A stretch of DNA of 64,000 bases, taken from the sequence record PQ511146.1. The stretch is one strand, 5' to 3'. How positions within the stretch are numbered: the first letter of the stretch is position 1; every line of letters starts with the position of its first letter. This document shows, one piece after another, positions 38,009-58,103 of this stretch. Origin of the DNA: Escherichia phage NHEP1. The position numbers were made by a program, and so were the translations under genes. Below the pieces are notes generated by a model that saw nothing but the letters and a program-made list of their open reading frames with translations, searched no databases and had not been told where the DNA came from.

Positions 38009-40081
38009 TTATGAGAAGTCTGGCGGAACAACATCTTCTACATACCCTTTCAGAGCAACCTGTCCCATATGCAGAACAGTAGAATCTCTGGCGGTAACAG
38101 TGATGCTGTCAGACATTACTTGCGGGTATGCCCACACATACTGTTTTACCTCAGGGTATCTATACTCTATGGTTGCCATGTTTCCGCAGATACATCTCCA
38201 TAAAAATTCTTGGTAATTCCTGGTTGGGTCGTAGCCATATACCGGAGCAAGCTCTTTGCTAGGAACGAACCCTGCAAGGTATTGTATTTCAGACGGTTGC
38301 CAACCTAACTTAACGATAGGTATGTTTACAGACTCTTTTGCCTTTTCAATACCGCCCTGCATCACCCAATCGTAGCACTCGGTGCAGAAGAAATCAAGAG
38401 CGCCTGCTTCCTTTTTATATTGGTCGGCAAGGTTCAGTTTTTGCGTAAGCTCGGTTTCCATAATGGTCGGGAAAAACAGCAAAGCTGTCATCTGAGCCGA
38501 TGCAGCATGTGCTTTTATTGCCTTTGAAATAGCTGCAATACGAGCTCCAAGCTTACCACGACAAAATGCTACATACTTGTCATAAACACCGCCAGTTTTA
38601 GGATCGTCAATAGTCCCAATGTCTAGTGCATATTCACCAGTCTCATCATAAAACGCCTGCTTTGTAGGGTAGTCATAAATACAAGGCTTACGAGTATCGG
38701 TATTGAACCACCACCACGGTTCACCAATCTGCATAATCACTGGCAGGTTGTTTCTCATAGCGGCTGATGCAAAATTCTTAAATACTGCAGTAAGGAAATT
38801 CATACCCTCTTCAATGGTTGGAGACAGGAGGTAACTACAAGGCGTATAGCCTGTTTTAGCATAGTTATCGTTCCAGTCTCTCTGGGTCCATTCCAACGGA
38901 CAGGCATCGCTATAAAGCTCAAAGCTTACAGACTGCATAACGTCGAAGTCATGTCGTTTGGCATTGTACATAAAATCATCATGCCATTTATAAGCTGCAG
39001 CGTTTAGAGCTCCTGTTTTGTTTATAGACCATTGGGTTCCTGACCATGTGTAGTCATAATAATGGCTCATACCAACATAATGGTTTATGGTTCCTGTATA
39101 GCCCAGACGCTTGATATTACTCAACACCCTTAAAGGGGATACGTTCCACATATCGTCATATGCTGTGCAGATCCCAACATCGTGTTCTTTCACCTGAATA
39201 TTGTTAAGTTGCATCATTTTCCAGCCTGTGTCCGGCTGAAGAAGATCTAGACGCAACTCACACTCTACATTTTCCGTTCTCGGGTCTGTGCTATTACCTA
39301 CCCAATCTTTAGGCATAAGTGGTATTAGAATCCTTCTCACCTGCCGGGGATCAACACCCATCATGTTGTTGTTCTGGTCCATCCCGACGCAGTCCTCGAA
39401 ATCAATATGAATTTCTGCAACATTCTTATCCTCTGAGATGCTGACAGCATATTGAGCTAAAGGAACATAGATGATTGTACCATCAACAAGGTCTACAGTC
39501 ATAATCATCTTTTCAGGGGTGGAGAAGTTGCTGGCATTGGTTATTGACATTCTGAACCAAAGCTTGGTGTTTCTCATCTCGTAGTGATCATCAAATCCAA
39601 TGCCGAAATGGTCATACTTGTCAACTGTTTCCCAAATGCACCCAGCCATGCCCCCATATGTTCTTGACACTAAACGATTAATACAGCAGTTATTATCCGC
39701 AACAATACAGGTGCTTTCAGTCTGCTGTGTGGTTGTAACCCAGTATCTTGGGTGAAACATTCTCTCCTCAACGGTATCCCAAGATATTCTGTCAAGATTT
39801 TCATCTGAAACTATTGTACATTTCGCTCTTTGTGTTCCAATCATAACCCCTTGGGAGTTTGATGAAAACTCCATAAAGAAGCTCCTTGGCAACCTGTTTG
39901 GCAATTTGTCAACAATTTCTACAGGGATCTCGATACTGGTTGCCCCAACCGGGATAGTTACATCGCCCTCAACATGATCATAATCCCTACCCGGAACTGC
40001 AGTATCCTGAACTGTGCGGTAATGAAACCGTGCAGCCATTGTAGAGTAATCACGGTAAGGTTTAAAAACAGCTGTTGCCAT
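38009..40081 (-). CDS. baseplate/fibre-associated structural protein with N-terminal Calx-beta-like segment
   Basis: 690 aa; DYDHVEGDVTIPVGATSIEIPVEIVDK; positioned after baseplate J/I-like genes. Confidence 0.45.
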   Translation of the reverse strand: MATAVFKPYRDYSTMAARFHYRTVQDTAVPGRDYDHVEGDVTIPVGATSIEIPVEIVDKLPNRLPRSFFMEFSSNSQGVMIGTQRAKCTIVSDENLDRISWDTVEERMFHPRYWVTTTQQTESTCIVADNNCCINRLVSRTYGGMAGCIWETVDKYDHFGIGFDDHYEMRNTKLWFRMSITNASNFSTPEKMIMTVDLVDGTIIYVPLAQYAVSISEDKNVAEIHIDFEDCVGMDQNNNMMGVDPRQVRRILIPLMPKDWVGNSTDPRTENVECELRLDLLQPDTGWKMMQLNNIQVKEHDVGICTAYDDMWNVSPLRVLSNIKRLGYTGTINHYVGMSHYYDYTWSGTQWSINKTGALNAAAYKWHDDFMYNAKRHDFDVMQSVSFELYSDACPLEWTQRDWNDNYAKTGYTPCSYLLSPTIEEGMNFLTAVFKNFASAAMRNNLPVIMQIGEPWWWFNTDTRKPCIYDYPTKQAFYDETGEYALDIGTIDDPKTGGVYDKYVAFCRGKLGARIAAISKAIKAHAASAQMTALLFFPTIMETELTQKLNLADQYKKEAGALDFFCTECYDWVMQGGIEKAKESVNIPIVKLGWQPSEIQYLAGFVPSKELAPVYGYDPTRNYQEFLWRCICGNMATIEYRYPEVKQYVWAYPQVMSDSITVTARDSTVLHMGQVALKGYVEDVVPPDFS

Positions 40082-40767
40082 TAACCCTCCTGTCTAGTTG
40101 CGTTTACTGTAATACTTTCACAATAAATGGTTGTAGTGTCCCAATCAGGTCTTACGTCAGGAACATATAACAAAGTAGCCAGCCCACCAACCCCGAACTG
40201 ATTTTCTTCCCACACTGATCCAAAGCCGAGAGCTGTAGAGTCCCCTTCAAAACCAAAAGCTTGCCCTTGCGACTCCGTAAGACGCAAATGACAAGGCAAT
40301 GGCAGCATATCCAAGATCTGGTCGATAGACTGCAATATGTCAAAGCAAGTTTTTCTAATGTTTATGTCAAACCTGAAATTGTCACCTTTCCACGTATCGA
40401 AATTATCTCTTCCGAACAACTGTCGTAAGGTGGAGATGACATCTTCGCGAGTACCACCTCTTGATGATGCTGCCTGCTGAATAATCAGTGTAGCACGAAA
40501 ATCCGCATCTGAAAGCCCATTCCGAAGAATACCAAGTTGATTACCAACTTCGTCAAGGTATCTTCCGCTGGCATTGTTAAGCAGTCTTCCTTCAGCCAAA
40601 CCTACCAGCATCTTATCAACATTCTCCAACCTTTTAAGGTACACGGTTAAGAATGTGACTAAATTAACCTTCTCAGCCAGAAAATCTCCAGGTAGGTAGT
40701 CAAGACCCCCCTGAACAAAATCTGGCAGAGTGTGGATGTGGTTGACATCCGACTTAATCTCTGCCAT
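40081..40767 (-). CDS. baseplate protein, gpI-like position
   Basis: 228 aa; immediately downstream of Baseplate_J-like gene with overlapping stop/start; assignment positional. Confidence 0.35.
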   Translation of the reverse strand: MAEIKSDVNHIHTLPDFVQGGLDYLPGDFLAEKVNLVTFLTVYLKRLENVDKMLVGLAEGRLLNNASGRYLDEVGNQLGILRNGLSDADFRATLIIQQAASSRGGTREDVISTLRQLFGRDNFDTWKGDNFRFDINIRKTCFDILQSIDQILDMLPLPCHLRLTESQGQAFGFEGDSTALGFGSVWEENQFGVGGLATLLYVPDVRPDWDTTTIYCESITVNATRQEG

Positions 40768-40778
40768 ATCTCGCCGCC

Positions 40779-42269
40779 TTAAATAGTTTGTTGGAAAGTT
40801 ATATTACTTTCGTCGAGGTCAAACACCTCGGTCATGTTTGCAACAATATCGTTTGTAGTGTAAGCTTCGTCAGAGGCTCCTACAGGTTTAACTTGAATTA
40901 CCAATCTGTTAAATCTGCCTATCGACACAGCAGCGGATGCAGCACCTACCAATTGGATATTGTACAACGTATCGGCGACATCCAAGCCGTTAACAACCTG
41001 TAAAAGAGCCTCTACAATGGCATCTTTTTCGGTTGTGGAAAGCGCAGCACCTGAGTAGGTAATTCTTACATCTAGGCGGTAGGTATTTGCCTTGGAGTAA
41101 TAAATCCTTTCAGTCTGACCGTCTGATGTGGTAATATCGTAGAAGATATTCCCATAAGTTCTGTTTGTGCAAGCTATGGTTTGATACAGTGCCTGACAGA
41201 TATCCTCTGTTGCACCACCAAACACCACCACTTGAAACTTATAAGGTGGTATACCTTTCGCATCCGTTTTATCGGTGTTGTTGGAGAACACTCTTACTTT
41301 CTCAACACCTTTCACCTCGCTTACAGCGCTAAGGATTGCAGGACGGGTAGCTTTAGATGTCAGCTGTTTAGTGCTGGAAGCTCTTAAGCGATACTCAGAG
41401 TCTTTCTCAACATCCCTACCCTCATTGAATCTTTCTCGGTTGGTAAGCTTGATAAATCCACTGGGAGTAGGTGACATTGTTGTCACGGTTTCTGCCTCTC
41501 TTGACAGCTCACCAGCCTCGTTAGCGATAACATCTAGGGTGATAGTTCTTTCCCCTACAATCGGGGATACTCTGAAATCTACCCTGCTATTAAGTCCAAC
41601 TTGATCAAGATTCGAATTGTACCCTATCCACAACGTCCCTGTCAACATATCTATCTGAATTAGATCATCATTCAGCAGGGTTGTATTATCGACAATGAAT
41701 TGCTTAATCTCGCCGTAAAAGCTTGGCAAATCAGAAGAGTCCAGAGCCTTATCTGTTAAAACCAGACTTTTTGTTTTGATACTTCCGTCTGTCTGGTTGG
41801 TAATTTGAAAGTTGTATTTCCCAATTCTTAGGTCTGGAGCGTTTATTCTGTGAGCAATAAGATTTCCCGCCACCTGCACATCGTTGCTAAGAACAAAGTT
41901 GCCACTGTCCAGCGTATAAGTTTTGGAATCATAAATCATATTGTACGGCACAGTTGTGTTGATTGTCAACTGGCAGGTACCTGATGATTTAGAACGGCCT
42001 CTTCGGTAAATACCCTGTCTTCCAAGAAGCTCATCCAGGTAAATACCTTCTGCCCCATATAGCGTCTGTGATGCGTATACAGATGCTGCCATAAGAATAA
42101 GTTGATATTCTCGCTCGTTGAAAATAGTGGTCAGCTTATCTGCAACTGAGTTACTTTGTACGTTGAAGTTTTCGCCAAAAGCACGGATCAGGCTTTGCTT
42201 AGTTTCAACGATTAGGTCATTTAGGGTTGGTATAACGAAACCAGCCTCTGTCAATCCATACTTAGCCAC
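40779..42269 (-). CDS. baseplate wedge protein, Baseplate_J (gp6/gp47/XkdT-like)
   Basis: 496 aa; N-terminal GLTEAGFVIPTLNDLIVETKQSLIRAFG, central YRLRASSTKQLTSKATRPAILSAVSEVKGVEKVRVF and C-terminal region fit Baseplate_J pattern; GTG start after GGAGGAG SD. Confidence 0.65.
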   Translation of the reverse strand: MAKYGLTEAGFVIPTLNDLIVETKQSLIRAFGENFNVQSNSVADKLTTIFNEREYQLILMAASVYASQTLYGAEGIYLDELLGRQGIYRRGRSKSSGTCQLTINTTVPYNMIYDSKTYTLDSGNFVLSNDVQVAGNLIAHRINAPDLRIGKYNFQITNQTDGSIKTKSLVLTDKALDSSDLPSFYGEIKQFIVDNTTLLNDDLIQIDMLTGTLWIGYNSNLDQVGLNSRVDFRVSPIVGERTITLDVIANEAGELSREAETVTTMSPTPSGFIKLTNRERFNEGRDVEKDSEYRLRASSTKQLTSKATRPAILSAVSEVKGVEKVRVFSNNTDKTDAKGIPPYKFQVVVFGGATEDICQALYQTIACTNRTYGNIFYDITTSDGQTERIYYSKANTYRLDVRITYSGAALSTTEKDAIVEALLQVVNGLDVADTLYNIQLVGAASAAVSIGRFNRLVIQVKPVGASDEAYTTNDIVANMTEVFDLDESNITFQQTI

Positions 42270-42302: not shown

Positions 42303-42331
42303 ATTTTACCAAATTTTGTAACAATAGTCAA
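42303..42331 (-). promoter_or_regulatory. sigma70-like promoter (TTGACT-N17-TAAAAT) upstream of Baseplate_J-like gene
   Basis: Read on minus strand right after the terminator: -35 TTGACT, 17-nt spacer, -10 TAAAAT. Confidence 0.55.
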
Positions 42332-42336: not shown

Positions 42337-42366
42337 GCATAAAAATAAACCCCGCCGAAGCGGGGC
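42337..42366 (-). terminator. rho-independent terminator (UUCG tetraloop) after the 1381-aa gene
   Basis: Minus transcript CCCCGC-UUCG-GCGGGG then UUUAUUUUUAU; same hairpin as at 16203-16218. Confidence 0.7.
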
Positions 42367-42374
42367 TTTAAAGG

Positions 42375-45300
42375 TTAGTCGTGAGACTCGTTCCAAGGTC
42401 CCTGGAAGCTTGAGTTAGAACGACTAACGATCACAGTGGGACAGGAGATTGTGACACCTGTCACGCTAGACGTTGACCACGGTGTGTAAATCTCGATAAC
42501 AATGTCTATAGTTTGTTCACCCAGACCTGTTATCCCTACCGCACACATGCCGTTGTTGTCGTTAAAATACTTCTTGCCAGCAAGGATCTGATGACCAGCT
42601 ATCCATGCATTCAGCTGGGAGCTGGCAAGAGTACCATTCAGTTTAAAGAAGAATGTTACGTTCTTACCCTGACCTGAAACGTTATCTACGTATCTCCACC
42701 TCCAACGGCAAACCCTTTGCCGGGAGTTGTATACTGGAGCACAATCTCCGTAAGTCCTGTGTGCAACAATCGCACCTTCGAACTGGTTAGCACGGATAAC
42801 GGAAGCTTCTACACGTCCACGGAATGTACCTCCTGTTGCATCTATGGTTCCTCTAAAGCTACCGTTGTTGGCATAAACATCCCCACGGAAGGTGCCACTG
42901 GTAGCGTTAACTGCCCCTGTGAAGTTACCTGCACTAGCGTTGATGTTACCTTTCACCCACACATCCATAAACTGGGCGTGCCCGTTCTTGTTAATATACC
43001 AACCGTATTTGTGGTACCCGTTGCCATCGTAGTTGTTTGACGAAATTTCTTGCGCGATCTTGGCAGAAGAGATCGTGCCGTTCTCTATAAAAGCGTCTTT
43101 CAAGAACGCTTGGTTGTTCTTGATTGCGAAAGCAAGGGTTGCTGTTCCATTGCCTGGGTTGTATACCGCAAAGTTGTTTGCGCTAACCATGAAATATGAC
43201 TGAACTTGGCCTCCAGAGCCTTCCATGCCTAACTGGATACCTGCCACATACTTATTCCCTGCGGAGTCTACCTGTATTTTTGTGCCCCATTGAGCATTTA
43301 CTTTGCCCTCTAAGTCGGTCACAGCCTTAGATGTTGTAGCCACTGCAGCTCTGAGTTCGGTCACATCTCCAACATCATCAATAATCTCCTGCTTAGCAAC
43401 AGCAAGTTCTTGACGAATAGCTGACGCTGTGCCATTAATAAGGTCAACAGTAGACTTATTAGTTTCAGAAATATTCGCAGACAATTCTTTCTTAGTCTGA
43501 GTCAGCTTATTATCCAACCCGTTAATGTTATTGGTGTTGGTTGTAATCTGCCCTTTAGCAGTGGTTAACTGCTCAGTCAAAGCTGCCGTTTTCTGATTCA
43601 ATAGGTCAGTTGTGGCCTTGTTGGTGGTAGAAATCAACGTATTAAGATCAGACTTGGCGGTGTTTATCTTACCATCAAGCGTGGTGTAGTTTTTGGACAC
43701 TGTGGCGTTGGTCTGGCTAATCTTCTGGTCAAGAGTCTCAGAAGTTCTGTTCAGCAAGTCCACAGTGGCCTGGTTAGTGCTCAGAATGCTCGCATCCAAC
43801 TCAGATCTTTGAGTATTCAACTTGCCCTCTAGGCTCTTATCACCAGCCAGATAGCCTTTTTCAACATCTCCGATCTGCTCAGTCAACTCTCCCTGTGCAG
43901 CAACCAGTTTTTCATCCAACGCCTCTGTTTTCTTATTAAGAAGATCAGTGGTGGATTTGTTGGTTGACTCAATCAAGGATGATAGTTTAGCACTCTCATT
44001 TTGCAGGTTGTTGGTCAACTCACCTTTCGTTGCTGTCAGCTTGTTATCTAAAGCCTCAGTTTTCCGATTAAGGAGATCTGTAGTCGTTTTATTGGTTGAA
44101 ACAATTAGAGAGTTCAGCTCAGAGCTTTCCTGTGCCAAAGCATCTTCCAATTCACCCCTTGTTGAAACAATCTTCTCGTCCAAAGCTTCAGTTTTCTGAT
44201 TTAACAGATCGGTTGTAGCTTTGTTAGTGGTCTGTATTAGAGAAGTCAGCTTACCACTTTCTTTAGAAAGATCATCTGCAAACTTGTTCTGAGTGGCTAC
44301 CAGTTTCTGGTCTAGAGTGGTAAGCGTTCCATTAACGTCCTGGAAGTTGTCGTGGGTTTCTTGGATGAATATTCCAACCCTATTCCCCAACTGAGCATAC
44401 AGCTTGTCTACTCTAGAGAACTCACCTTCCATGTGGTCAAAAGCCTCGTCAACTCTACCATCCATGTACCTGTTAAGTTCTGTGACACGATTTTCAACCT
44501 CTTCAATAGAGGAATCTAAAGTGCTCATCAACTCTTTATAAGTTTCTGTCTTTTTAAATTCAGCATCTATCTGAGGCATCAAATCTTCAATAGAGGTGTA
44601 GCAGCGTGCAGCGCATTCTATAAACTGAGAACTACCAAAAGCGTTTGTGGTTCGAATATACCAATAATAGATCTTATCGTTCTGCAGACCTTCAGATGTC
44701 CAAGTTGAACCAACACCCATACGAGTGGCTTTTGAAGTAACGGTTGCATCACTTGTGTCTGGCAACCTTGTCATACCAGATGTCCAAAAGTCATACTGGG
44801 TGCTTACACTTGCTAAGTCCCTGCTGTGCGGAATCAAGGTGATAGCAAAGTATCCCTGCTTAACTTCTACAGAAACCGGAGCTTCAGGTGCCTGAATGTT
44901 AAACTCGCAGTACGCTTCTGGAGATACACCACCTTTATAAGATGTTGCAACCACGGTTGCTGTGTATGACCCTTTGGTCAATCCTTCTACACGGACAAAC
45001 TGCTCTACTGTTTGTGCTGTCCAAATAATTTCTCCGTTCTTTCTTACCTGCACAATATTTTGAGCATAAGTTCCAACGTTGTCCCAAGCCAAAACACCAT
45101 GAGTTACTTCCCCAGCTTGAAGAACAGAGTATCTGAAGTTTTGCGGTTGAGCTACGCCGGACGGGGATATCGGAATATCCACATCGCCAGAATCCGGAAG
45201 TTGCCCTGTGGCATCATTCCACTCTTTAGCATCTTGACGGAGTTTTACCTTGACACCGCCCTTTTTGGTGAACTCCCACTCAAGAACCCTCATTTCTTGG

Positions 45301-46520: not shown

Positions 46521-46957
46521 TAATACCTCCAGACATCAACAACGATAGAATCTTTCATGTCGAACATAAAGATCCCTTTATCACCTTTCGCCCAAATCTG
46601 GTTGTTCCAGAACACACCAGCGGTGAGCCCGTTCAGACCTTCGAAAATAACAATATCACCACGCTGAACCTGTTTAGGAGTATCCAGTCGAGTCAAAAAG
46701 AGATCAAAAATAGTAGGCAGATGTGTGGTTTTGAAACGAAGCATGCACCATCTCTTGCTTTCCAACTCTGTTTTATACGTTCCTTCAAAGTTAGAAAGAA
46801 AATCTGTTCCGTATTGGGCATCAACACACTTAGCCGCAAAAGTGCAGCAATCGTGGAATCCCCATTCAAACGGGATGGTGGCTTCTTCGTCAAACACTTT
46901 CCACAATCTTTCTTGCCAGTCCACTAAACGAGGGTGTGTGCTCATTAAACCTCCCAA
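46520..46957 (-). CDS. tail-associated NlpC/P60-like peptidase (tentative)
   Basis: 145 aa; FEWGFHDCCTFAAKCVDAQYG with candidate catalytic Cys; immediately upstream of J-like gene. Confidence 0.35.
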   Translation of the reverse strand: MGGLMSTHPRLVDWQERLWKVFDEEATIPFEWGFHDCCTFAAKCVDAQYGTDFLSNFEGTYKTELESKRWCMLRFKTTHLPTIFDLFLTRLDTPKQVQRGDIVIFEGLNGLTAGVFWNNQIWAKGDKGIFMFDMKDSIVVDVWRY

Positions 46958-47511
46958 ATGATCGGGCGGCTTGCCACCTGATCCACATATTTAAAAAATC
47001 TGTCATTATCGTTTCTTGAGCTATGGCTCTCCTCTGTGTACCGATAAGGAAAACCTCTTAACCAGCTGTTGAAGATGGAAGATATGGATATGGACAAAGC
47101 ACTATTCTCCCCTGTCTGAATAGCCATGTCTGTTATAAGGCCGTCAAACAAGCCATTGGTTGTAACAGGTAAACCATTCTCCATAGCTGTGATATACAAC
47201 GTGGCACGACAACCCGAATACTCCGTCTTCAGCAGATCACCTACATACTTGGGATCAAACCCGTTCAATGTTGCTACCACAGATCCGAAGTTGGTGGCAT
47301 CTTTCTCAGACACAGCAGTCAATGTTGCTGATCCACCTATCCCTATAAAATGTTGCCCCTCAATCACCACAACACCAGTTCCTGAGCACACCCTGACAGT
47401 CCCTGTTGGTAGCTCTAGCTTTGCAGCAATTAAGATCTCAACACTATCAAGCTCCAGCTTTTCAAGAAATAAATTATCTAATGGCGCTCTAATCATCTTA
47501 GAAATCCTCAA
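46945..47511 (-). CDS. tail tip assembly protein (hypothetical)
   Basis: 188 aa; overlapping stop/start with neighbours. Confidence 0.4.
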   Translation of the reverse strand: MRISKMIRAPLDNLFLEKLELDSVEILIAAKLELPTGTVRVCSGTGVVVIEGQHFIGIGGSATLTAVSEKDATNFGSVVATLNGFDPKYVGDLLKTEYSGCRATLYITAMENGLPVTTNGLFDGLITDMAIQTGENSALSISISSIFNSWLRGFPYRYTEESHSSRNDNDRFFKYVDQVASRPIIWEV

Positions 47512-48088
47512 AGAAGTTGATAACTATATTATCACCTTTTTGCATAGCATCGACTTTTTGCTTAATTTTATAAATATCTCTGATATGAAACCTACCCTTT
47601 GGGGATTGAGTTATTATCTTCATAGTGTCCCCTGCGGCAATAGGTTTTCTAAGTCTTGGAGATATGCTTATAACAGCAGACCCAACACCATCGCTGCGCA
47701 CTGGAGCTGTTACCACTTTCAATTCATCGTTAACAGATATTTTATCCCCAGCTCTGGCTATGTCTCTGTTTGGCTCCCATCCGACCGTCTTCAAAAAATC
47801 GTCGTTACCAGTAGGCCCAAGGGCGATTGGCTCATTAGCTGTTACTGAGTGACCGTACGTTTTAATAAGAAAAATGTTCCCATCTTTATACACCTGATCA
47901 ACAAAGCTCTTAAGCTCTAGCAGTTGTGACTCGCTGATATTGGAAACCGTCAAAGTGCCTTTCCAGTTAGGTGTGGCATAGGTCACTTTTTGCGTTTTAC
48001 CTGTAAACGGACTTTTAAACGTAACAATATCTGCCAGCAGCTCCAATCTGATGTCTGGAAGGTATCTAGGCCTTTCCCATAAAAACAT
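47498..48088 (-). CDS. tail tip protein (hypothetical, distal-tail-like position)
   Basis: 196 aa; first gene after terminator 48148-48180. Confidence 0.4.
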   Translation of the reverse strand: MFLWERPRYLPDIRLELLADIVTFKSPFTGKTQKVTYATPNWKGTLTVSNISESQLLELKSFVDQVYKDGNIFLIKTYGHSVTANEPIALGPTGNDDFLKTVGWEPNRDIARAGDKISVNDELKVVTAPVRSDGVGSAVISISPRLRKPIAAGDTMKIITQSPKGRFHIRDIYKIKQKVDAMQKGDNIVINFFEDF

Positions 48089-51100: not shown

Positions 51101-52006
51101 GTTAATGCGTGCACCTGCGGCATCTTTGGCCCCTGTACCACCCTGCTCTATAGCAAGAGGTTGCCACGAAGCTGTTTGTTGGTTCCACATACCCCAACGG
51201 CCTGTTGCATCAAGCTGCAAGTACCCTGCCGTGTTTAAATCATCTCCGGCACGGATAACTGTTCTTGTTGGGTTGTTTGCCTCCAGGCGTTTAAATTCGT
51301 CACGAAGTGCTATTCTTTTTGTTGTTGCTACACCGTTGGTTACTGCAATGGTATACATGGCTCCAGAGGTAGCGCCACGGAAAATGCCATCAACAGTTGT
51401 AGTATCACGACGAGATACCACACCGTTCAGAAATTTTTCACCAGCTGCTTCAGAAGGGTAGTTAGTAGTTCTTCCCTCTTCAATAACTGCAGGACCAACA
51501 AAGTTGACAAGGTGAATAACATCACCTACAGTATGCACTGTACCAAAATCTACCCGCTGTGCAAGTGCTTTAGCATCGTTGGCTGTCTGAACAGTAACAT
51601 CCATTACATCCTGGACAGACTGCCCTTCGGCTGTCATGATCATAGATGCGCCAATGGTAGATTCTAGCTCCTCCCTTAGGGACGGGTCAGTATATACCAT
51701 CCACGCAGCGTCAGTAATCCCACCGTCAGAATATGGTGAAGACAGTGCAGGGACAGTGTGTGGAAATTCGCCTTTCCAACGCAGGTATAGATCTTCCTCT
51801 TCGAAGTAGGCAAAATCCATTGGGCCGTTTAACTTACCACCTTCCTTAAAGGAGATTACATGAGAAACAGTCCCATCCACATGGACAACATCGCCAATTT
51901 TTACACGACGGGTCAGGTCTGGTTGTTGAACAACCAGGTAATCATCCTCTGTCACTGCGGTAGTGGCAGGAAGAGATTCAATTCTGACAACTTTAATATC
52001 AGCCAT
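48188..52006 (-). CDS. long tail fibre / tailspike with C-terminal intramolecular chaperone (Peptidase_S74-like) domain
   Basis: 1272 aa; C-terminus SDRDLKDNIEVIPNALEAIRKMNGYTYTLKENGMPYAGVIAQEV then coiled coil; N-terminal 120 aa homologous to 54641..55309. Confidence 0.7.
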   Translation of the reverse strand: MADIKVVRIESLPATTAVTEDDYLVVQQPDLTRRVKIGDVVHVDGTVSHVISFKEGGKLNGPMDFAYFEEEDLYLRWKGEFPHTVPALSSPYSDGGITDAAWMVYTDPSLREELESTIGASMIMTAEGQSVQDVMDVTVQTANDAKALAQRVDFGTVHTVGDVIHLVNFVGPAVIEEGRTTNYPSEAAGEKFLNGVVSRRDTTTVDGIFRGATSGAMYTIAVTNGVATTKRIALRDEFKRLEANNPTRTVIRAGDDLNTAGYLQLDATGRWGMWNQQTASWQPLAIEQGGTGAKDAAGARINLGAFYKQRAALEANFNINNLTGNQDGVYYQPMTANATEANGYPAGSGAGHLIVWQNNANGGTGCRQEYYPFSNVDVWYLRTYQANTNQWTAWQPMVRPRNDETFRSHIGLGSRNSPTFGHLYLSQSSADVKSASGIVHGDKYSADGVLEHGYRIYSEVRNDNKAWLTIHLHKGAKGSETHRYLGFREDGVLDCPKYMQVGDLTGQLTNWGLGEWIRSSGAERGFWGSKKAAKMVIWDGGMDESGNGTLEWGVYNNRKAKWEPLPQAAGGTGVTTLAEAQNMFRVPVAAGVKDFLTLPRTAGMEDGKYYPIIVRTDPYYAPSTGTDITIVTRSSSGNDPMNCATLQCHYRTGGWTDRGDSFQGVINFYQNEKAILGCIAPTRGKQEYVAFYVEARAFPVSIYASRNVLEVFTRENDWQVGNVTNNQDGVKFCAPLASDNLSLAIKGDDVTNTRPLAEFKGTSGFYTGGGAGWHYIGTPDRMVLMSKTEMPPVEMWYNGLNYICPGSQTTRKALFSNAGFQAASEGTEDLINNTFTSKCGNGARLQGQAEFRSTPEAGQVIVRDVVGTAHRFYNFNKDGTFSAPGGFVCHTGADWNNQFGPNNPSKIIAGNVNGPQDTMVVGGLSVGFSGNYAFQIAGRQSNLYTRSIEGGNHHPWNKAMQHRGQGLGTSDLNTYHGLWEGIYHQPANNDATNDRHYPVNEAGTLIVLQNNANNGNGCVQEYITYHGDRFIRYGNMVKQVFTWGPWTQTGGNGVSFRYGGTTPEGEIPTPELKVYISGSHVTNNGGNMPANSAHMHYWGNGSTGNRPNVLEFKVLDDSQANWVWHCGTLPDKSRYLSVNGAVNCVSVNQNSDRDLKDNIEVIPNALEAIRKMNGYTYTLKENGMPYAGVIAQEVMEALPEAVGSFVQRKEAPDPTQDGTPLITEERFYSVDYAAVTGLLVQVCREQDDKITALEEQVKKLTEVVTGLQEKLK

Positions 52007-52041: not shown

Positions 52042-54639
52042 TTAAAGGTACAATCCACGGTATTGAGCATAAAGTCCCAGACCGCGAAGGATTTCGCCAG
52101 AGTGATAGCCTACCGGATCAGAAACTGCCCAGCAGCCGTTTAAAACATTATCCCCGTTAATGAAGTGGTGCTTTTGCAGTAACTTCATACAGGCTTCTAC
52201 AACAATATCTATTTGAGGTATTGTCTCTGAATACCCGCAAAGACCTAGCCAGCAGCAACCTGCAAGCCATTCACCTACCACCCACATCCTGTCTCCTCTG
52301 TCCTGATAAGAGTATCCTCCAGAGGTGTTAAAGTCTGTAGGTAGATTTCCTGAATGAGATGACTGGAATCTGTTGAGGAACCATGCCCATTTCTGGCAGA
52401 ACAGGAACAGTCTTTCATCAACAGGTTCTTTATGTTTCTTGAGCTCATATATTGTGCGGCACGCAGCAACAAAAGATCTTGACTGGAGCTTAGAGTTATC
52501 TACCATCTCCCACCAACCAGTCAACCCTTCATTACCTCTTTGCCATACATAACGTGAGGCAACTGGACCCTCTGTCTTAAATGTATTATTATACCAGACT
52601 TGAGAGTCGTACAGAAAGCCTATTGTATTTGACAATCTATGGCGATCTATGTTTTCTGCACCCATGCAGTAGACTGCTGGGTATTGCATGCCAGGGTAGG
52701 GCCAATTTGGCTTTTCCTCTAAGAGATAGTTTTCCTTATCTATCACCTTCCCAGCAGGGAACACACCAGGAGTGTGTCTGTATGCTCCTTGCTTGTAGTT
52801 TCTGACATAGCAATCACCAACCTTGGCGGTTGATTCTGTCTTGCTTGCCATCCATACACTAAACCAGATCAGATAAGCATCCCTATCTGCAACATAAAAT
52901 TGCGGCAGCGTGTTGACGCAATACAGATCGAACAAGCCATTGCCTATCTGCCTGTCGCTCAGACTGAAATCTACAGAGGTAATTCCTTTAGGGTTAGCAA
53001 AGAAAGGTTTAATCTCATCTTCTGTGTGATGAGGTTGTGTTGGGTCTAGTTTAAAATCGCCCAGGGTAAGAGTTTCTGTTATCCATTGCCCGTTAGTAGC
53101 ATATAGATCAGCATACCATAACCAACGGTCTTTGTCAAGAAATTTGACCCTTACCATCTCATCATCTGACCGATAAGTCACTGAGTTTAAAGAAATCTCT
53201 CTTCCAAAATTGAAAGTTACCTTGCCTCTTACTATGTTGCAACGGGTGAAGTTGTCAGAGTGGTTGTAAATGTCGGTATCATACTGCATACTGACACTCG
53301 CGCCACCGCTTACGGTAATGTTTTCCTCTTTTGGCAAGAGATACGGGTTACCGTCTTTACCAACCACCTCCACGAAATCGGTGACCTTGGCAACTGTCTC
53401 TGTTACCTCTGACCCTCCAAAAGGGACCCCTATCCTATACTGTTTTTTGTTATTGTTGCCATCATTAAGGATGAAATGTGGCTGAAACAGAACCCCTTCT
53501 CCTCCGAAATTCATAACAATTTCAGCATCTCTGCCTATTTTGTATGTAATCCCTTTTTGGATTATTTCGCAAGGCTGGCGTGCGTTCATTCTAAAATTGA
53601 TATATCCGTCACTATCCCTACTCATGACAGGTACTGTTCCTGCAACTAGACAGGTGCCATCTGTGAACGGAGCCTTAATCAACGTGGTCTTTCTAAACAG
53701 TTTGTCGTAGGCATTTATATCACTGAAATTAAGCAGCTTGTTGTAAGATTGCTTAAACGCTGTGTAATACTTTTCCTCACCTGTCAAGGTATAGAGTTGA
53801 TAACAAGCGTCACACCACATTTCTTCCCCGTCCAACTCTGGGGCTTGATTGTCTGCAACCACGTTTATAGGATTTACAATTACAGGGGATCCAGCAGGTA
53901 TCACCGATCCACCCTGCTCTTGTGGCAATCTCACACAGTAGGTTACCTTGTGGCTGCCTGTAACACCCTTATCCTGCAGTTGGATTGTGCCGAACTCTGC
54001 AGACGTATGACCACTATCGGCTATGCTACCATTGGCCCAATAGCGGTTACCATCCCATGCTATATACCACTCAACCCACCAACTTAATCCAGATGTTGTC
54101 CAATTTGGGTTAGCATCTGTGCCGCCGTAAACATCAGAGTCTACAGTGTTTCTTCCTAGCACACCGTTATACGCTTGGAATGCCTTGTCTAAGTATTCTC
54201 CCCATGTCGGGGATCCAGCTGGGATTTTTCCTCTACCATTGGTGAAAGACACCACTACATCTTTAAACCCACCATGTGATGGAACCCCATCTGTGGATAA
54301 CGGGTAGTGGGACAATCTTTGCATTTTACTTTCTACTGCATATACGCCCAGAAGATGACTGTTGTAGGCTTCCCAAGCCTCTTTGGCCCTATCTAGATAA
54401 AAATCGCTTTTTGATGCCCTGTATGCCTCAATGTACCCCAGAATCAACACAGCCTGAGCTTCATGCATTGCCCAATCATTATTTATCTTACTCCCTGACC
54501 AACCTGACGCTATAAGTCCATCCTGGTTTACCAGTTTGTTCTGCGTGGGGAGATTGGTAATGCCTGTGTTGTTATCGAGGCACTTCCTGTGCCCCTCAAT
54601 CATCTGAAATACGTTATCAATGTTGTGTTGAATACGCAT
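52042..54639 (-). CDS. putative tail-associated polysaccharide-degrading enzyme (alpha/alpha-toroid-like, speculative)
   Basis: 865 aa; aromatic/Trp-rich helical segments at both ends with beta-rich middle; own AGGAG SD inside the end of the upstream gene; start 1 nt after upstream stop. Confidence 0.35.
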   Translation of the reverse strand: MRIQHNIDNVFQMIEGHRKCLDNNTGITNLPTQNKLVNQDGLIASGWSGSKINNDWAMHEAQAVLILGYIEAYRASKSDFYLDRAKEAWEAYNSHLLGVYAVESKMQRLSHYPLSTDGVPSHGGFKDVVVSFTNGRGKIPAGSPTWGEYLDKAFQAYNGVLGRNTVDSDVYGGTDANPNWTTSGLSWWVEWYIAWDGNRYWANGSIADSGHTSAEFGTIQLQDKGVTGSHKVTYCVRLPQEQGGSVIPAGSPVIVNPINVVADNQAPELDGEEMWCDACYQLYTLTGEEKYYTAFKQSYNKLLNFSDINAYDKLFRKTTLIKAPFTDGTCLVAGTVPVMSRDSDGYINFRMNARQPCEIIQKGITYKIGRDAEIVMNFGGEGVLFQPHFILNDGNNNKKQYRIGVPFGGSEVTETVAKVTDFVEVVGKDGNPYLLPKEENITVSGGASVSMQYDTDIYNHSDNFTRCNIVRGKVTFNFGREISLNSVTYRSDDEMVRVKFLDKDRWLWYADLYATNGQWITETLTLGDFKLDPTQPHHTEDEIKPFFANPKGITSVDFSLSDRQIGNGLFDLYCVNTLPQFYVADRDAYLIWFSVWMASKTESTAKVGDCYVRNYKQGAYRHTPGVFPAGKVIDKENYLLEEKPNWPYPGMQYPAVYCMGAENIDRHRLSNTIGFLYDSQVWYNNTFKTEGPVASRYVWQRGNEGLTGWWEMVDNSKLQSRSFVAACRTIYELKKHKEPVDERLFLFCQKWAWFLNRFQSSHSGNLPTDFNTSGGYSYQDRGDRMWVVGEWLAGCCWLGLCGYSETIPQIDIVVEACMKLLQKHHFINGDNVLNGCWAVSDPVGYHSGEILRGLGLYAQYRGLYL

Positions 54640-54640
54640 C

Positions 54641-55309
54641 TTAGATAGCTCCTGCTATAATCAGTGCCCCGTACCAAGTTAGCCCGTTGTCGTAGGTTTC
54701 TAACTTGAAAATATCTGTTGCACCAGCTGTAAATGTTAGGATAGGATCTCTTCCGTATGCCCATTTAACATTATCAGGCCAATAGACTTTGTTACCGCCA
54801 GAGGTCTGAGTAATGCATACGGTTATAGTTCTCGCTACCCCTTCAAGACCTTCTGTCTGATTTTCAAAAGAGATTGTGGTATTTGAAGTTAGTCGAACTT
54901 TAAAAGTGTCCGCAACTTCAAGATCCATATCAAGCTGACCACCAATAGATCCGTAATCAACTATTCTGCCAGAAGAAGTTGCAGCAAGCTCCCCAAAAAC
55001 AGACCAGGCTTTTGCAGACACACCCCCAGCACCCTCTACAGTAGAGTCTGGGAGGATTATTTTAGGGTAATCCCCGTTCCACGTGTAGTATCGCTTGGTC
55101 TCTGGGTCATAAGCAAAGTCCTTCTTGCTCTTAAGATAACCGCCCTCTGTGAAATAAACTATTTTAGTAATGCTAAGATCATTGACAACATCATCAATCT
55201 TAGCCTTTCTTGTCCCGTCAGTCTGGTTGACAACCAAGAAGTCATCACTCAAGACTGTTTCTGCATCTTCAAGATCTGGGATTGGTATTGTAGGATAAGC
55301 TACAGCCAT
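54641..55309 (-). CDS. tail fibre N-terminal anchor-domain protein (adapter)
   Basis: 222 aa; DDFLVVNQTDGTRKAKIDDVV...FTEGGYLKSKKDFAY aligns with N-terminus of 48188..52006 (DDYLVVQQPDLTRRVKIGDVV...FKEGGKLNGPMDFAY). Confidence 0.55.
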   Translation of the reverse strand: MAVAYPTIPIPDLEDAETVLSDDFLVVNQTDGTRKAKIDDVVNDLSITKIVYFTEGGYLKSKKDFAYDPETKRYYTWNGDYPKIILPDSTVEGAGGVSAKAWSVFGELAATSSGRIVDYGSIGGQLDMDLEVADTFKVRLTSNTTISFENQTEGLEGVARTITVCITQTSGGNKVYWPDNVKWAYGRDPILTFTAGATDIFKLETYDNGLTWYGALIIAGAI

Positions 55310-55318
55310 GATTTCTCC

Positions 55319-56035
55319 TTAGTTAACATCAATAGCACGACCAGACTGGTTGGCAATAGCCTCATCATTAGAGGTAGCAATAACACCCGAATATTCGCGC
55401 TCATCTGGAGCAAGCGTCCAGGTATTGCGGTTAATGGTTTGTTCTGCATCAGTCATCAGCAGATCTTTATCCTGAGTCAACAGAGAACCTACAGGGATCG
55501 GGTTTTCCATCTCAGGACCAGCATACTGGTTCCACCACGTAGCATCCCCGGTTCTAGGCAACCTGAAGTTGATCAGGTAGTACAGTTTATTAGCCCACTT
55601 AATCCAACCTTCATCATCACACAGAGAGGTTGTCCCAGCATCAGGCTGTGGATAGGTAAACTGGTCAAGACCTACGAAAGCAAGTCTTACAATCTCGTTC
55701 TCTTTGGTAACAACCTCAAAGAACGCTTGGTATGTTCTCGATCTTCGATCCATGGTGGATTGGAAGTTTATGATGTTTAGTACATCCGGCTCTTGTCTTG
55801 CCACTTCCATAATCTTGTTATCAAGAACAGTCTTCATGACCTTCTTACTGAGAAAGTCCATATAAGGGAAGCCAAACAACTCGTCAAAGTACCAGCTCCC
55901 TTTCCAGGTATTAAACCTCATCCACAGGCGCTGGCGCAGACTTACCTGGTTTGAGTCTATCAACTCAAGACCTTTATCTATCGCCAAATCACCTGTCTGT
56001 GGGTCCATCAATATATCACTATAAAGCGTAGCCAT
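55319..56035 (-). CDS. baseplate wedge protein, gp25/GPW-like
   Basis: 238 aa; TWKGSWYFDELFGFPY resembles the GPW/gp25 core motif (...KGSRPFDPEFG...). Confidence 0.5.
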   Translation of the reverse strand: MATLYSDILMDPQTGDLAIDKGLELIDSNQVSLRQRLWMRFNTWKGSWYFDELFGFPYMDFLSKKVMKTVLDNKIMEVARQEPDVLNIINFQSTMDRRSRTYQAFFEVVTKENEIVRLAFVGLDQFTYPQPDAGTTSLCDDEGWIKWANKLYYLINFRLPRTGDATWWNQYAGPEMENPIPVGSLLTQDKDLLMTDAEQTINRNTWTLAPDEREYSGVIATSNDEAIANQSGRAIDVN

Positions 56036-56047
56036 GCAAGCCCTCTA

Positions 56048-56725
56048 TTAGTGCGGTCCACTTGTCTCGCCATCAGGGCAAGAGTGGGTATGACCTTTAT
56101 ATTCTGCATAGAATGAGTCCAAATCCACACCAGCAGCCGTTATAATTCTACCAGACGGGTCTACTGTTGCACCATTCATTCTAATATTCCCATCCACAGC
56201 AGCTCGTAAGTTGGCAGCTCCGTTAGTGAAAGAAAACTCCCCACTACTGTCGCACCGTAATGTCCCGCCAGGTGTTTGAAGCTCAAAATCACCAGAAGGT
56301 GTCAGCTTAAAATAAACCCTATCATTCCATAACTCCACATTATCAGGATCGATCTGCAAAGCGTTCGAGTCTGAATGAACAGAGGTTATTGCCCACCCTG
56401 GAAACAGACCGTGAGTTTGTTGATCGTCGTTATTGTTTTCATTTCTCTCTGAAAACTGCAACCCTACAACATCGCCAGCCTTAATAGGGAGTGTTAACCT
56501 TGCCTTCCCACTGTTTGCAGACATCACCTGGATCGGAACGTCATAAATAAGAGGGTATCTCTCAACATCCCCGTCATCAAACGTGGTTTCAGCTATTGGC
56601 TGTACTGCTGCGGAGGGGATACTGTAATCTACACTGACAACTCTGGCCCTGATACTGGTGTGGTAGTCCCTCATTATTTTTTCTATAAAGGATCTTACAG
56701 CAGCATCTTTCCTATTTATTGCCAT
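56048..56725 (-). CDS. baseplate central spike, gpV/gp5-like
   Basis: 225 aa; C-terminal KGHTHSCPDGETSGPH with HxH metal-binding-type apex motif; adjacent to gp25-like gene. Confidence 0.55.
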   Translation of the reverse strand: MAINRKDAAVRSFIEKIMRDYHTSIRARVVSVDYSIPSAAVQPIAETTFDDGDVERYPLIYDVPIQVMSANSGKARLTLPIKAGDVVGLQFSERNENNNDDQQTHGLFPGWAITSVHSDSNALQIDPDNVELWNDRVYFKLTPSGDFELQTPGGTLRCDSSGEFSFTNGAANLRAAVDGNIRMNGATVDPSGRIITAAGVDLDSFYAEYKGHTHSCPDGETSGPH

Positions 56726-57723
56726 TATACCTCCTCAGTTTTGTCAACAACTCCACCCACTGTTTCCCCAAGGCCAAGCTCTGTAGTGTAATCACCACCT
56801 TCTATGGTGCCCTTATGATGGACTGTGATCACCTTATAGAAGCCTGTGTATTGCCTGCTTTTAAGATAAATGGTGGACTCTGGGAGGATCGCCCCGTTAA
56901 GACATGTGGTTACAGTAAGACCAACATCCTCTCTCGGGTTTTTCTTTTTCTTACTTGTGCCACCTTTCGCAGCAGCTTTAGCTTTTCGTTTTTTAGCAGG
57001 TTCTGGGTTTTTAGGTGTGGGTGATCCGTGCATCCCAGACTCTGCACTTATTTCAAATACAGAGTCCTTGAACCTTTTTCCAACCTTGGTCCAATATAGA
57101 GCACCGTCCTGAACGCTGAATGTTGAGTTTGTCAGCCTTGCAAACCTGCGGAGGTTCTCTGCAGTGTTCCCAGAGAAAGCCATAGAGTATTGTAAAGTCT
57201 GGTTTCCAAAACCAACAACCCTACCTTTTGGCAAGTTCATATCCTTCAGCAGGTCATTAAGCACAGAGTTCAGAGGTGTGCCCTTCTGATAAGACCTTGT
57301 GCTTTGGCACTTAATGATGTTCTCAGTGCCATCCCCAAAGATGAACTTAGTTTTTCTGGTCGGACCTTCCCATCTGTCCTCAACAAACTCTACAGTTCCG
57401 GAGAATATCAACTGGTTCTCATTATCATAGCCAGCCTCAAACATAACTGCAAGAGCATCAGCTTGATGCATATCCAGATAGTTAACTGTATCGTCAGACA
57501 GGTTGTAAACTGTCACATAGCCTTTGTTTGGCTCTTTGGTATTGTCCTTTTGTATGTCAAACTCGATATTGGCAGCACCAGTGTCCGAGCTAATCTCATA
57601 AACTCCGGAATCACTCTCTCCTTTCTTTTCAACAGATTTTGGGATATTGGTTTTTGATTTACCGCCATGCTCTACAGGACGACCAAATAATAATCGCCAT
57701 GTTCTACGTCTGTACTCTGCCAT
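56725..57723 (-). CDS. tail/baseplate protein (hub-like position), hypothetical
   Basis: 332 aa; Lys-rich segment PEPAKKRKAKAAAKGGTSKKKKNPR; between tape measure and spike. Confidence 0.35.
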   Translation of the reverse strand: MAEYRRRTWRLLFGRPVEHGGKSKTNIPKSVEKKGESDSGVYEISSDTGAANIEFDIQKDNTKEPNKGYVTVYNLSDDTVNYLDMHQADALAVMFEAGYDNENQLIFSGTVEFVEDRWEGPTRKTKFIFGDGTENIIKCQSTRSYQKGTPLNSVLNDLLKDMNLPKGRVVGFGNQTLQYSMAFSGNTAENLRRFARLTNSTFSVQDGALYWTKVGKRFKDSVFEISAESGMHGSPTPKNPEPAKKRKAKAAAKGGTSKKKKNPREDVGLTVTTCLNGAILPESTIYLKSRQYTGFYKVITVHHKGTIEGGDYTTELGLGETVGGVVDKTEEV

Positions 57724-58103
57724 TATTCTAACCCTTGCTGTTCCTTGTAAAGATCAACTGGGGTGCCGTATACAAGCTGTAGCTCGGATCTTGCTCCAAG
57801 GTTGTATCTTCCAACCCTGCCCCAATATTGATCATCTTTAAACGACAGCGCCATCAACCTACCTTTCGGTAAATCGTCTCTGTAATGCAGTCCGTCTAAG
57901 ATATCTTGACAAGCTGTTACTTTTCTGGTTACTAAAGGGCTGTCACCTACCGGACCAAGGGATAACCACCAAGACTCATCCCTCTCATTCCATTGCATAC
58001 GCATTTCATACGTTTCATTGTCTAAAACAACACGCATGGTTTGATCGGGAAAGCCGTCAATGTCCCACACAAAGGTGATTATGCACCAATCTTTAAGCTC
58101 CAT
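57723..58103 (-). CDS. tail protein, hypothetical
   Basis: 126 aa; stop/start overlap with neighbours. Confidence 0.4.
   Translation of the reverse strand: MELKDWCIITFVWDIDGFPDQTMRVVLDNETYEMRMQWNERDESWWLSLGPVGDSPLVTRKVTACQDILDGLHYRDDLPKGRLMALSFKDDQYWGRVGRYNLGARSELQLVYGTPVDLYKEQQGLE

Follow-up and report, generated by a model that had tools for sequence, protein, structure and literature searches.

A siphophage-type tail-tip cassette among the contractile-tail baseplate genes of Escherichia phage NHEP1 and its rV5-like relatives

The tail-tip genes of phage lambda (gpM-gpL-gpK-gpI-gpJ; PDB 8iyk, 8k35 and 8xcg) combine a ring, a hub protein, a protein at the NlpC/P60 position and a J protein. 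In T5 and DT57C, the complex that forms the DNA exit of the siphophage tail includes pb9 (the distal tail protein, Dit), pb3 (hub) and pb4 (an FN3 central fibre), and the gene transfer agent (GTA) RcGTA, a siphophage-like particle, encodes Dit, hub, peptidase and megatron in g12-g13-g14-g15 (PDB 6tba). Among siphophages of the Queuovirinae (Seuratvirus and Nonagvirus), phage WildeMaa carries four such genes (bas23_0017-0020) after its tape-measure protein (TMP) gene, where they form the tip of a non-contractile tail. Here we analyze a stretch of 64,000 nucleotides from Escherichia phage NHEP1 (PQ511146.1; “the window” is this whole stretch) and describe a cassette of the same four-gene logic (48088 to 42375) that lies among the baseplate genes of a contractile tail. 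The features located below are on the minus strand unless a plus strand is named.

The same genes, in the same order and position, occur in rV5 (gp37-gp40) and in its Vequintavirus relatives, such as MaxBurger (Bas54; bas54_0028-0031). The proteins are 97-100% identical to those of NHEP1 and the difference lies in the stalk of the J-like protein only, which has 1279 amino acids in total in rV5 and MaxBurger versus 1381 here. Kropinski et al. 2013 list rV5 gp37 as a “tail fibre protein (host-specificity)” with Phage-tail_3 in the gene table, and this genome paper reports HHpred matches of gp37 to MuSO2 and Neisseria 43-kDa hub proteins (PMC3606486). Maffei et al. 2021 place the J-like gene among the allelically variable “lateral tail fibers” and call the fibre-to-gene assignment unclear (PMC8594841), and the RBPseg paper finds that the J-like N-terminus resembles central tail fibres. 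Public RefSeq/Pharokka records name the cassette genes “central tail fiber J”, “distal tail protein” and “tail protein”. In our literature search, which drew on an incomplete library, no paper treats the four genes as one siphophage cassette, notes its restriction to the genus or places it on the virion. The genes are already known and annotated; the literature found neither describes them as one cassette nor gives this cassette a place on the virion.

The cassette consists of four translationally coupled genes that span 5.7 kb, and the set reads Dit, gpL-like hub protein, gpK-position protein, J. The earlier note on this DNA, made from its letters without database searches, had seen three small genes, an NlpC/P60-like gene and a J-like gene typical of siphophage tail tips. 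The tail-tip cluster holds; the count does not, and we find three small genes plus J, with the third of the small genes (encoding a DUF6950 protein) as the NlpC/P60 candidate. WildeMaa has the same four genes with the same order and translational coupling, at amino acid identities of 59% for the J hub, 62% for the Ig domains, 67% for the tail-tip domain, 45% for DUF6950, 40% for the L-like protein and 31% for Dit; its lateral tail fibre is also shared (34%). In NHEP1 the cassette belongs instead to a myophage with a TMP, hub and spike of its own. The Queuovirinae J-like protein also differs in having a hydrophobic N-terminus, a linker of ~90 amino acids and a different head.

Compared with lambda, the cassette is without an equivalent of gpI, its Dit is of the two-domain T5 pb9 type and not like the 109 amino acid gpM, its L-like protein has no conserved cysteines for an Fe-S cluster and its DUF6950 protein has no invariant histidine. 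The Pfam families Phage_tail_L, Phage_min_tail and NlpC_P60 gave no match among the cassette proteins. The T5 and DT57C proteins are the best solved-structure matches for three of the four cassette proteins, at only ~13-21% identity. In T5 the L-like and hub parts form a single chain and the fibre (pb4) is separate, whereas here the L-like protein and the J N-terminus both match pb3 and therefore together correspond to a split pb3. The RcGTA g13 chain (6tba_7A) and megatron chain (6tba_8A) are also among the top structural matches, but the relation is remote, and the g14 product of RcGTA is a genuine peptidase.

Both ends of the cassette have a terminator-like GC hairpin with a TTCG loop. The upstream hairpin (48161..48180), which is followed by a T-run, sits after the stop of a gene for a 1272 amino acid fibre (48188) and ahead of the Dit-like start (48088), and the downstream one (42347..42368) begins 7 nt past the stop codon of the J-like gene. 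The first cassette gene (47498..48088) encodes a siphophage-type Dit of 196 amino acids that matches PHROG 1302, “distal tail protein” (E 2.2e-50), and shares 31-37% identity with the Dit proteins encoded after the TMP genes of WildeMaa and PY54. A profile built from 76 sequences matched pb9 of DT57C (E 9e-5) and T5 (E 6e-3) over the full length when searched against the PDB; a single-sequence phmmer search and a 9-sequence profile against the same database found nothing.

The second gene (46945..47511; public records place its start 5 codons later) encodes a 188 amino acid protein that a structural model and Foldseek relate to lambda gpL, RcGTA g13 and the N-terminus of T5 pb3. A homologue search with the sequence alone returned 3 near-identical proteins and was repeated with an alignment, and the AF2 model from 42 sequences has a pLDDT of 78. 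With this model, Foldseek finds the pb3 N-terminus of T5 and DT57C, JBD30, lambda gpL (8iyk_L, TMq 0.51), T1 (9l9p_J), Chi and the GTA chain 6tba_7A, with E values of 4e-6 to 3e-4 and TMq of about 0.5. Homologues of the protein carry the name DUF2163, as does g13. Searches of the PDB with phmmer and a 9-sequence profile gave nothing meaningful for this protein, and Pfam at E values up to 10 gave nothing usable for either the 196 or the 188 amino acid protein.

The third gene (46520..46957) occupies the position of lambda gpK and encodes a DUF6950 protein of 145 amino acids (Pfam E 1.2e-33). In its alignment, the motifs F..WG..DC and GD are invariant and a DC(C) is conserved. Among the PDB profile matches, the NlpC/P60 enzymes MepS/Spr come first, at an E value of 0.3 that is not significant, and neither Pfam NlpC_P60 nor a single-sequence phmmer search against the PDB gave a match. 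By position and motif, a degenerate NlpC/P60 protein is plausible.

The fourth gene (42375..46520) encodes the J-like tail-tip protein, which matches PHROG 31, “central tail fiber J” (E 9e-161), and is 50% identical to the WildeMaa J-like protein, N-terminus included. The likeness to lambda gpJ that the earlier note had recognized is borne out by the Pfam domains Ig_J, Ig_J_second and Phage_Tail_Tip and by an alignment to gpJ residues 666-990 (E 8.6e-28). These leave the first 490 residues uncovered, a region 50-59% identical to the N-terminal region of Queuovirinae “J-like tail tip proteins”. Within it, amino acids 48-460 (45141..46379) form a hub region of the gp27/Phage-tail_3 type. Pfam Phage-tail_3 scores 14.3 bits on the NHEP1 protein (E 0.037), below its 23-bit cut-off, and is carried by J homologues at 48-57% identity; tblastn of the hub gives weak matches to T5-like pb3 hub proteins. 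An AlphaFold model of residues 1-520 has low confidence (pLDDT 51), and we use its fold matches only jointly with the sequence evidence. The top 15 Foldseek matches of this model in the PDB are all siphophage hub proteins (E 8e-13 to 2e-4), among them T5/DT57C pb3, the RcGTA hub chain, lambda gpJ, JBD30, Chi and Sf11. From sequence and this model together, we conclude that a hub domain is present. The earlier note had allowed that the 1381 amino acid protein might be just another FN3-containing side fibre with no such domain; because the hub domain is present, we reject that description.

Ahead of the hub is a polar segment (amino acids 1-47; 46380..46520) that replaces a hydrophobic segment of the siphophage homologues. 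The mean Kyte-Doolittle value of the N-terminus is 0.02 in NHEP1 versus +1.0 to +2.1 in 29 siphophage homologues, 21 from databases and eight from siphophage loci; in every one of these, the N-terminal ~40 residues are strongly hydrophobic and rich in Ala, Gly and Ile. The N-terminus of lambda gpJ, a more distant relative, is polar (-0.62). Downstream of the hub are two Ig/FN3-like domains (amino acids 461-650; 44571..45140; Ig_J E 4.7e-5, Ig_J_second E 3.4e-30), which align with lambda gpJ residues 666-846. They are followed by a repetitive, length-polymorphic coiled-coil stalk (amino acids 651-1050; 43371..44570). Of the 400 stalk residues, 309 have no WildeMaa counterpart, making the stalk ~310 amino acids longer than the siphophage linker. 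It is the sole strongly variable part of the J-like protein within the genus, with an indel of 102 amino acids relative to MaxBurger.

The stalk repeats are degenerate around S(T)TNK(A/S/T)TTDLLN(Q/K/R)KTEALD, and its length shifts by whole blocks between phages. These repeats were seen by eye and in alignment only; a self-BLASTP search reported none. The Phage_Tail_Tip (formerly DUF1983) fibre domain (amino acids 1051-1235; 42816..43370; Pfam E 6.9e-39) matches lambda gpJ 846-990, the F2-pyocin fibre and the T1 J protein. The last 146 residues (amino acids 1236-1381; 42378..42815) make up a genus-specific C-terminal head, presumed to be the receptor-binding tip, that is 18% identical to WildeMaa and unrelated to the siphophage head. 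In tblastn the head finds only rV5-like genomes (92-100%) and one marginal siphophage match.

A DNA search with the 18-kb baseplate and fibre region finds 93-95% nucleotide identity over the full length to at least 113 rV5-like E. coli myophage genomes, including rV5 derivatives and the BASEL phage MaxBurger, and more than 110 sequenced rV5-like phages have the whole arrangement. By identity and synteny, we assign the source phage to the genus Vequintavirus, the rV5-like myophages. The genes of this region are all on one strand, and the open reading frames (ORFs) that the earlier note had worked from are present where it placed them. In the direction of transcription, the order is sheath (cut by the window end), tube, chaperones, tape measure, tube initiator, plug, hub, spike, sheath initiator, three fibre genes, the four-gene cassette, a Baseplate_J wedge protein, a second wedge protein and further fibres. 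The sheath, tube and tape-measure proteins have the Pfam domains DUF3383, KPP10_Orf10 and TMP_3, and their orthologues are annotated in MaxBurger. The cassette of NHEP1 does not stand directly after the TMP gene at the tip of a non-contractile tail; it lies ~11 kb downstream of the tape-measure gene in a phage with a sheath, and its neighbours are a fibre gene and a wedge gene.

Cassette proteins are 31-59% identical to, and syntenic with, those encoded after the TMP gene in Queuovirinae and other siphophages. At six of the eight siphophage loci that we fetched, the same four genes, with order and overlapping stop and start codons unchanged, follow the TMP gene directly: WildeMaa (Seuratvirus), Yersinia phage PY54, Pseudomonas phage PSA-2T, Serratia phage Tlacuache, Vibrio phage 264E42.1 and Providencia phage Kokobel2. 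Vibrio phage 83AMN has the same four-gene order on a fetched stretch that ends short of the TMP gene. In Acinetobacter phage W9, the Dit and L-like genes are separated by an additional gene of 2.7 kb. A scan of IMG/VR returned 80 loci with a relative of the J hub, all on contigs of at most 61 kb. We checked these for the four-gene order, which 75 of the 80 have; the window's sheath, tube, hub, spike, sheath-initiator or wedge genes are in none of the 80.

The myophage relatives show the reverse. Four sister phages (a Seuna-like Salmonella phage, Mydovirus VIK251, Serratia phage Kashira and the phi92-like phage alia) share the core baseplate genes with the window at 25-92% identity, and there is no trace of the cassette genes in their baseplate regions (±20 kb). 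In tblastn searches of the phage collection, the cassette proteins are matched at ≥90% (~116-118 rV5-like records) or at <60% (siphophages), with none between. From this pattern of sequence and synteny, the cassette appears to be a siphophage tail-tip module gained horizontally from a Queuovirinae-like E. coli siphophage.

Some database labels around these phages deserve a comment. In the phage collection, 18 records (MG0656xx) are named “Campylobacter phage”, with C. jejuni as the host, and are 93% identical here to rV5-like coliphages; one 100-kb record of the set appears to be T5-like. These records are most likely coliphage contaminants or wrongly labeled. The record PQ002171.1 (Salmonella phage vB_Sen_SG_WM_SEW_6S) has a taxonomy line of Demerecviridae, the T5-like siphophages, and its sheath, hub, spike, gp25 and wedge genes, at 55-80% identity to the window's tail proteins, make it a myophage of the Vequintavirinae type.

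The window encodes a complete simple baseplate of the P2/Mu/Pam3/phi92 type. We find a contractile-tail tube initiator of 303 amino acids (58115..59026; Pfam Dit_like E 2.5e-22) that is kept in all sister genera, a baseplate plug of 126 amino acids equivalent to phi92 gp136 (57723..58103; Pfam Pam3_gp18 E 2.9e-18; PMC13450770) and a canonical hub of 332 amino acids (56725..57723; PHROG 196, “baseplate hub”, E 2.6e-83) that is 58-60% identical in the Seuna-like, Mydovirus and Serratia relatives and 36% identical in the phi92-like phage. The earlier note had placed contractile-tail baseplate genes at four further positions, and all four assignments hold. The gpV-like spike (56048..56725; 225 amino acids) is of the phi92 gp138 type, with a gp138-type N-domain (Pfam E 1.4e-9) and a C-terminus (...GHTHSCP...) in which HTH is the HxH apex motif; metal binding is predicted from the motif. 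The gp25/gpW-type sheath initiator (55319..56035; 238 amino acids) matches in the PDB the sheath initiator of phiTE (E 6.7e-61), phi92 gp139 (6.7e-15) and Pam3 gp21. Pfam gives no match on this protein, but its orthologue in a divergent lineage (L096, below) does match Pfam Sheath_initiator. The Baseplate_J/gp6-type wedge protein (40779..42269; 496 amino acids; Pfam Baseplate_J E 4e-9; PHROG 6) is 60% identical in sister genera. The gene at the P2 gpI position (40081..40767; 228 amino acids) encodes a second wedge protein that matches phiTE “Wedge 1” (E 2.5e-67) and phi92 gp146 (E 3.8e-23) in the PDB, with nothing usable from Pfam at E values up to 10. These core genes are all common to the four sister lineages.

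Baseplates of phi92 and phiTE (PDB 21vq, 9cuy and 9mjn) have homologous core proteins, and fibre genes likewise lie between their sheath-initiator and wedge genes. In the cryo-electron microscopy (cryo-EM) structure of phi92, hub gp137 and spike gp138 are at the centre, so that proteins homologous to those of NHEP1 fill the centre and the wedge ring (PMC13450770). Phages like phi92 and phiTE are without the Dit-L-DUF6950-J cassette, and their solved baseplates therefore cannot locate the cassette proteins. As an aside on stoichiometry, the text of the phi92 paper gives one gp145 and two gp146 conformers per wedge, and a legend names gp145-i, gp145-o and gp146 (PMC13450770). By homology (gp145 being of the Baseplate_J type and gp146 the small wedge protein), the 2:1 version of the legend matches the canonical arrangement.

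This baseplate bears on where the cassette could sit. The earlier note had proposed an unusual mosaic baseplate with a J-type central fibre or hub. The mosaic is confirmed; J as the hub or central fibre is not supported, as a canonical hub and spike are encoded. We reject the cassette as the main hub, and J is not the hub of this baseplate because the genes upstream of the cassette already supply a tube initiator, plug, hub and HxH spike, which are kept in genera without the cassette. As in phi92, piercing falls to the canonical hub and spike.

A version of the central fibre idea, and the main rival of a peripheral position, places Dit, L and J on the tail axis under or around the spike, as a lambda-like central fibre whose cone opens or is shed before piercing. 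Dit, the gpL-like protein and the J hub all have folds specialised for 6-fold and 3-fold rings that stack on one axis, all three proteins are retained under strong constraint and not the fibre part alone, and in a siphophage hub the lumen is normally taken up by the TMP C-terminus, a trimeric rod whose calibre may be near that of the spike. The few spectra of the J-like protein in rV5 virions would fit merely 3 copies per virion. We nevertheless judge an axial position unlikely, since NHEP1 has an intact hub, HxH spike, plug and initiator, conserved to the same degree as in cassette-free genera, the maps of phi92 show a closed centre and a free spike (PMC13450770), work on the Bas49/Bas54 baseplates reported no central cone, and a cone ahead of a piercing spike would need to be removed at each infection. 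The hydrophobic N-terminal segment is also lost from the J-like protein; this loss, together with the separate hub and TMP, argues against the cassette as a DNA exit channel.

Purifying selection on the cassette is as strong as on the core baseplate genes. In comparisons with MaxBurger and BP9, dN/dS is 0.008-0.05 for the cassette genes, with Dit and the L-like gene at 0.008-0.024, and 0.007-0.03 for the hub, spike, sheath initiator and wedge proteins. A divergent rV5-like lineage (~76% DNA identity; L096/L097, seen only in read-archive assemblies, such as Logan contig DRR842911, and in E. coli assembly GCA_002973135.1 JZQG01000004.1) keeps the same order of baseplate and cassette genes with the four ORFs intact. 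L096 has no megablast match in a phage collection of 50,697 records, and its lineage is probably an undescribed species or genus-level relative. Its J-like protein has 1199 amino acids and is 72% identical overall to that of NHEP1; residues 13-46, within the polar N-terminus, are identical between the two myophage lineages. Dit is 83%, the L-like protein 86%, the hub 85% and the spike about 83-84% identical between the window and L096. The DUF6950 protein (46520..46957 vs L096:10553-10978) is 62% identical, with its F..WG..DCC and RGD(I/V)V motifs retained, and this fast divergence with retained motifs is consistent with a non-structural or enzymatic role.

A non-functional remnant, or a selfish passenger of siphophage recombination, might be expected to have flanking terminators like those of a moron-type insertion, as the cassette does, and the sister genera infect their hosts without it. 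This reading is close to refuted, and we give it almost no credence: the four ORFs are intact in at least 116 genomes and in the 76%-identical lineage, dN/dS is low, the stalk, the head and the conserved polar N-terminus are lineage-specific innovations, and peptides of the J-like protein are found in virions. The cassette is an acquired, selected and lineage-specific module.

Divergence within the module is uneven. At ~58% identity of the J hub, the myophage-siphophage pair has Dit at 31% and the L-like protein at 40%, whereas siphophage pairs at the same J-hub identity have Dit at 41-49% and the L-like protein at 55-56%. The components that changed most are the “upper” ones, which contact the tube and tape measure in siphophages.

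Evidence from virions comes mainly from rV5, where gp37, the orthologue of the J-like protein, was found in the virion proteome with 4 peptides and 5 spectra, one peptide only being fully tryptic with a high score (PMC3606486). The three other cassette products, gp38-gp40, were not among the 19 proteins detected, in an analysis that missed many known small structural proteins (PMC3606486). An O177-phage “proteomics” paper contains no virion mass spectrometry. The cryo-EM work on Bas49 and Bas54 in the RBPseg paper located three of nine annotated fibres; it left the J-like protein unassigned and one contacting density without an assignment.

The J-like protein could also be a plain trimeric side fibre. 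The other three cassette proteins would then be assembly chaperones left out of the virion, much as the role of gpK and gpI in lambda is largely one in assembly. The detection of gp37 alone would agree with this, as would the faster divergence of DUF6950 (62% vs 83-86% for its neighbours between myophage lineages) and the statement of the RBPseg authors that hub-type N-termini need partner proteins to trimerise. The conservation of Dit and the L-like protein, however, is like that of the true hub and spike (83-86% vs about 83-85%), their dN/dS is more typical of structural parts, and the equivalents of Dit and gpL are stable virion parts in the structures of lambda, T5, T1 and the GTA. Set against these points and the small number of proteins recovered from rV5 virions, a fibre with three chaperones seems improbable to us.

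We think it fairly probable that the cassette as a whole is an imported siphophage module reused as a peripheral, accessory receptor-binding fibre complex. It would have ceased to form a DNA-conducting tail tip, and we take it not to be a DNA conduit because the membrane-like J N-terminus is lost and the cassette has no tape measure of its own. A trimer of J, closed by the L-like protein and capped by a Dit ring, could self-assemble into an accessory receptor-binding fibre, with the stalk of ~400 amino acids presenting the genus-specific head to the cell surface. The complex may dock at the baseplate periphery or the fibre network through a remodelled top side, made up of the fast-diverged Dit and L proteins and of the polar, ultra-conserved amino acids 1-47 of J in place of the membrane-like segment. 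A search for a shared anchor peptide, comparing the J N-terminus, the Dit termini and the J head with other ORFs of the window, gave nothing below E ~0.1.

Several points weigh against a peripheral complex of this kind. The gp37 signal in rV5 virions is thin and gp38-gp40 were not seen there, and the Bas49/Bas54 maps contain no assigned J-like protein. A Dit ring and hub cone built for axial stacking favour an axial position as much as a peripheral one, and the quicker divergence of Dit and L could stem from mosaic origin and not from a new binding partner. The low confidence of the J N-terminal model and the weak link of DUF6950 to NlpC/P60 enzymes also count on this side. A complete miniature siphophage tail tip on the contractile baseplate, present as six pseudo-tips around the periphery or as a single cone on the axis over the spike, is a tentative idea that we hold to be possible but rather doubtful.

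The fibre genes next to the cassette also bear on its origin. The ~13 kb that the earlier note had measured between the gp25-like and Baseplate_J-like genes comes to 13,050 nt and contains, as it had said, fibre genes and a tail-tip set: genes for fibres of 222, 865 and 1272 amino acids, the small genes for 196, 188 and 145 amino acids and then the J-like gene. The interval as such is a family habit, because all sister genera examined keep fibre genes between the sheath-initiator and Baseplate_J genes. We therefore reject the interval as an oddity; the cassette is its special part. The 222 amino acid protein (54641..55309) is a fibre or adaptor with Tail_spike_N (Pfam E 3e-10) and a match to PHROG 7760, “tail fiber”, and is 40% identical in the Seuna-like phage. 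The 865 amino acid protein (52042..54639) is a tail-associated fibre or scaffold that is conserved across the subfamily, with 34-35% full-length identity to a Seuna-like “tail protein” and the phi92-like gp021 and no match in a Pfam search.

The lateral fibre of 1272 amino acids (48188..52006) has an N-terminal Tail_spike_N and a C-terminal Peptidase_S74 chaperone domain by Pfam. Its residues 409-1270 (~860 residues) are 34% identical to the lateral tail fibre of WildeMaa (L003:13467-16853), the gene for which is directly downstream of that siphophage's J-like gene. The protein is a chimera, with a Vequintavirinae-type Tail_spike_N anchor in the first ~400 amino acids and a siphophage-like distal part. 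Because the fibre is chimeric and its siphophage homologue adjoins the J-like gene, comparison of these sequences suggests that the J cassette and the side fibre moved together and that the N-terminal anchor was then exchanged. It seems that the entire host-recognition block was brought in from a Queuovirinae-like phage and given a new anchor.

Further fibre genes lie downstream of the wedge genes. A 690 amino acid fibre (38009..40081) combines a Calx-beta domain with the N-domain and TIM-barrel of the N4 gp65-type “non-contractile tail sheath” (E 7.7e-80), and is 42% identical to a phi92-like homologue. Published work ties this protein to ECA/NGR glycan recognition. Its gene is downstream of the second wedge gene here and upstream of Baseplate_J in the phi92-like phage, so fibre genes have been rearranged between genera. 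Also downstream of the baseplate genes, at 34897..35943, 36357..36941 and 36956..37996, are a pair of paralogues for short tail fibres like Mu gpS and a gene for a fibre assembly chaperone of the lambda-gpK family (Caudo_TAP). The pair of short-fibre paralogues agrees with the BASEL account of Vequintavirus.

Upstream of the Baseplate_J gene, there is a consensus match to a sigma-70-like promoter (42303..42331; TTGACT-17-TAAAAT with an extended TG). Elsewhere in the window, the GC skew goes positive at ~20300..27000, where a block of plus-strand ORFs (including 20381..21430, 21443..22924 and 24406..24972) breaks the otherwise minus-strand genome. No tRNA genes were found within the 64-kb window.

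The cassette is a clean natural case of a multi-protein organelle exchanged as a module between non-contractile and contractile tails. If virions do carry a complete miniature tail tip, they would be the first case of a hybrid that has turned a tail-tip initiator complex in its entirety, and not just a fibre domain, into a receptor-binding organelle, with either the remodelled Dit or the conserved polar peptide at the J N-terminus as the new docking element. A whole siphophage tail-tip complex acting as one large “fibre” offers a structural hypothesis for the leftover density in the Bas49/Bas54 maps. The J head is conserved across the genus on stalks of variable length, which suggests that it addresses a conserved receptor. 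The rV5-like phages are among the most commonly isolated broad-host-range phages of E. coli and are therapy candidates, and the cassette points to a transplantable, self-assembling receptor-binding unit for engineering.

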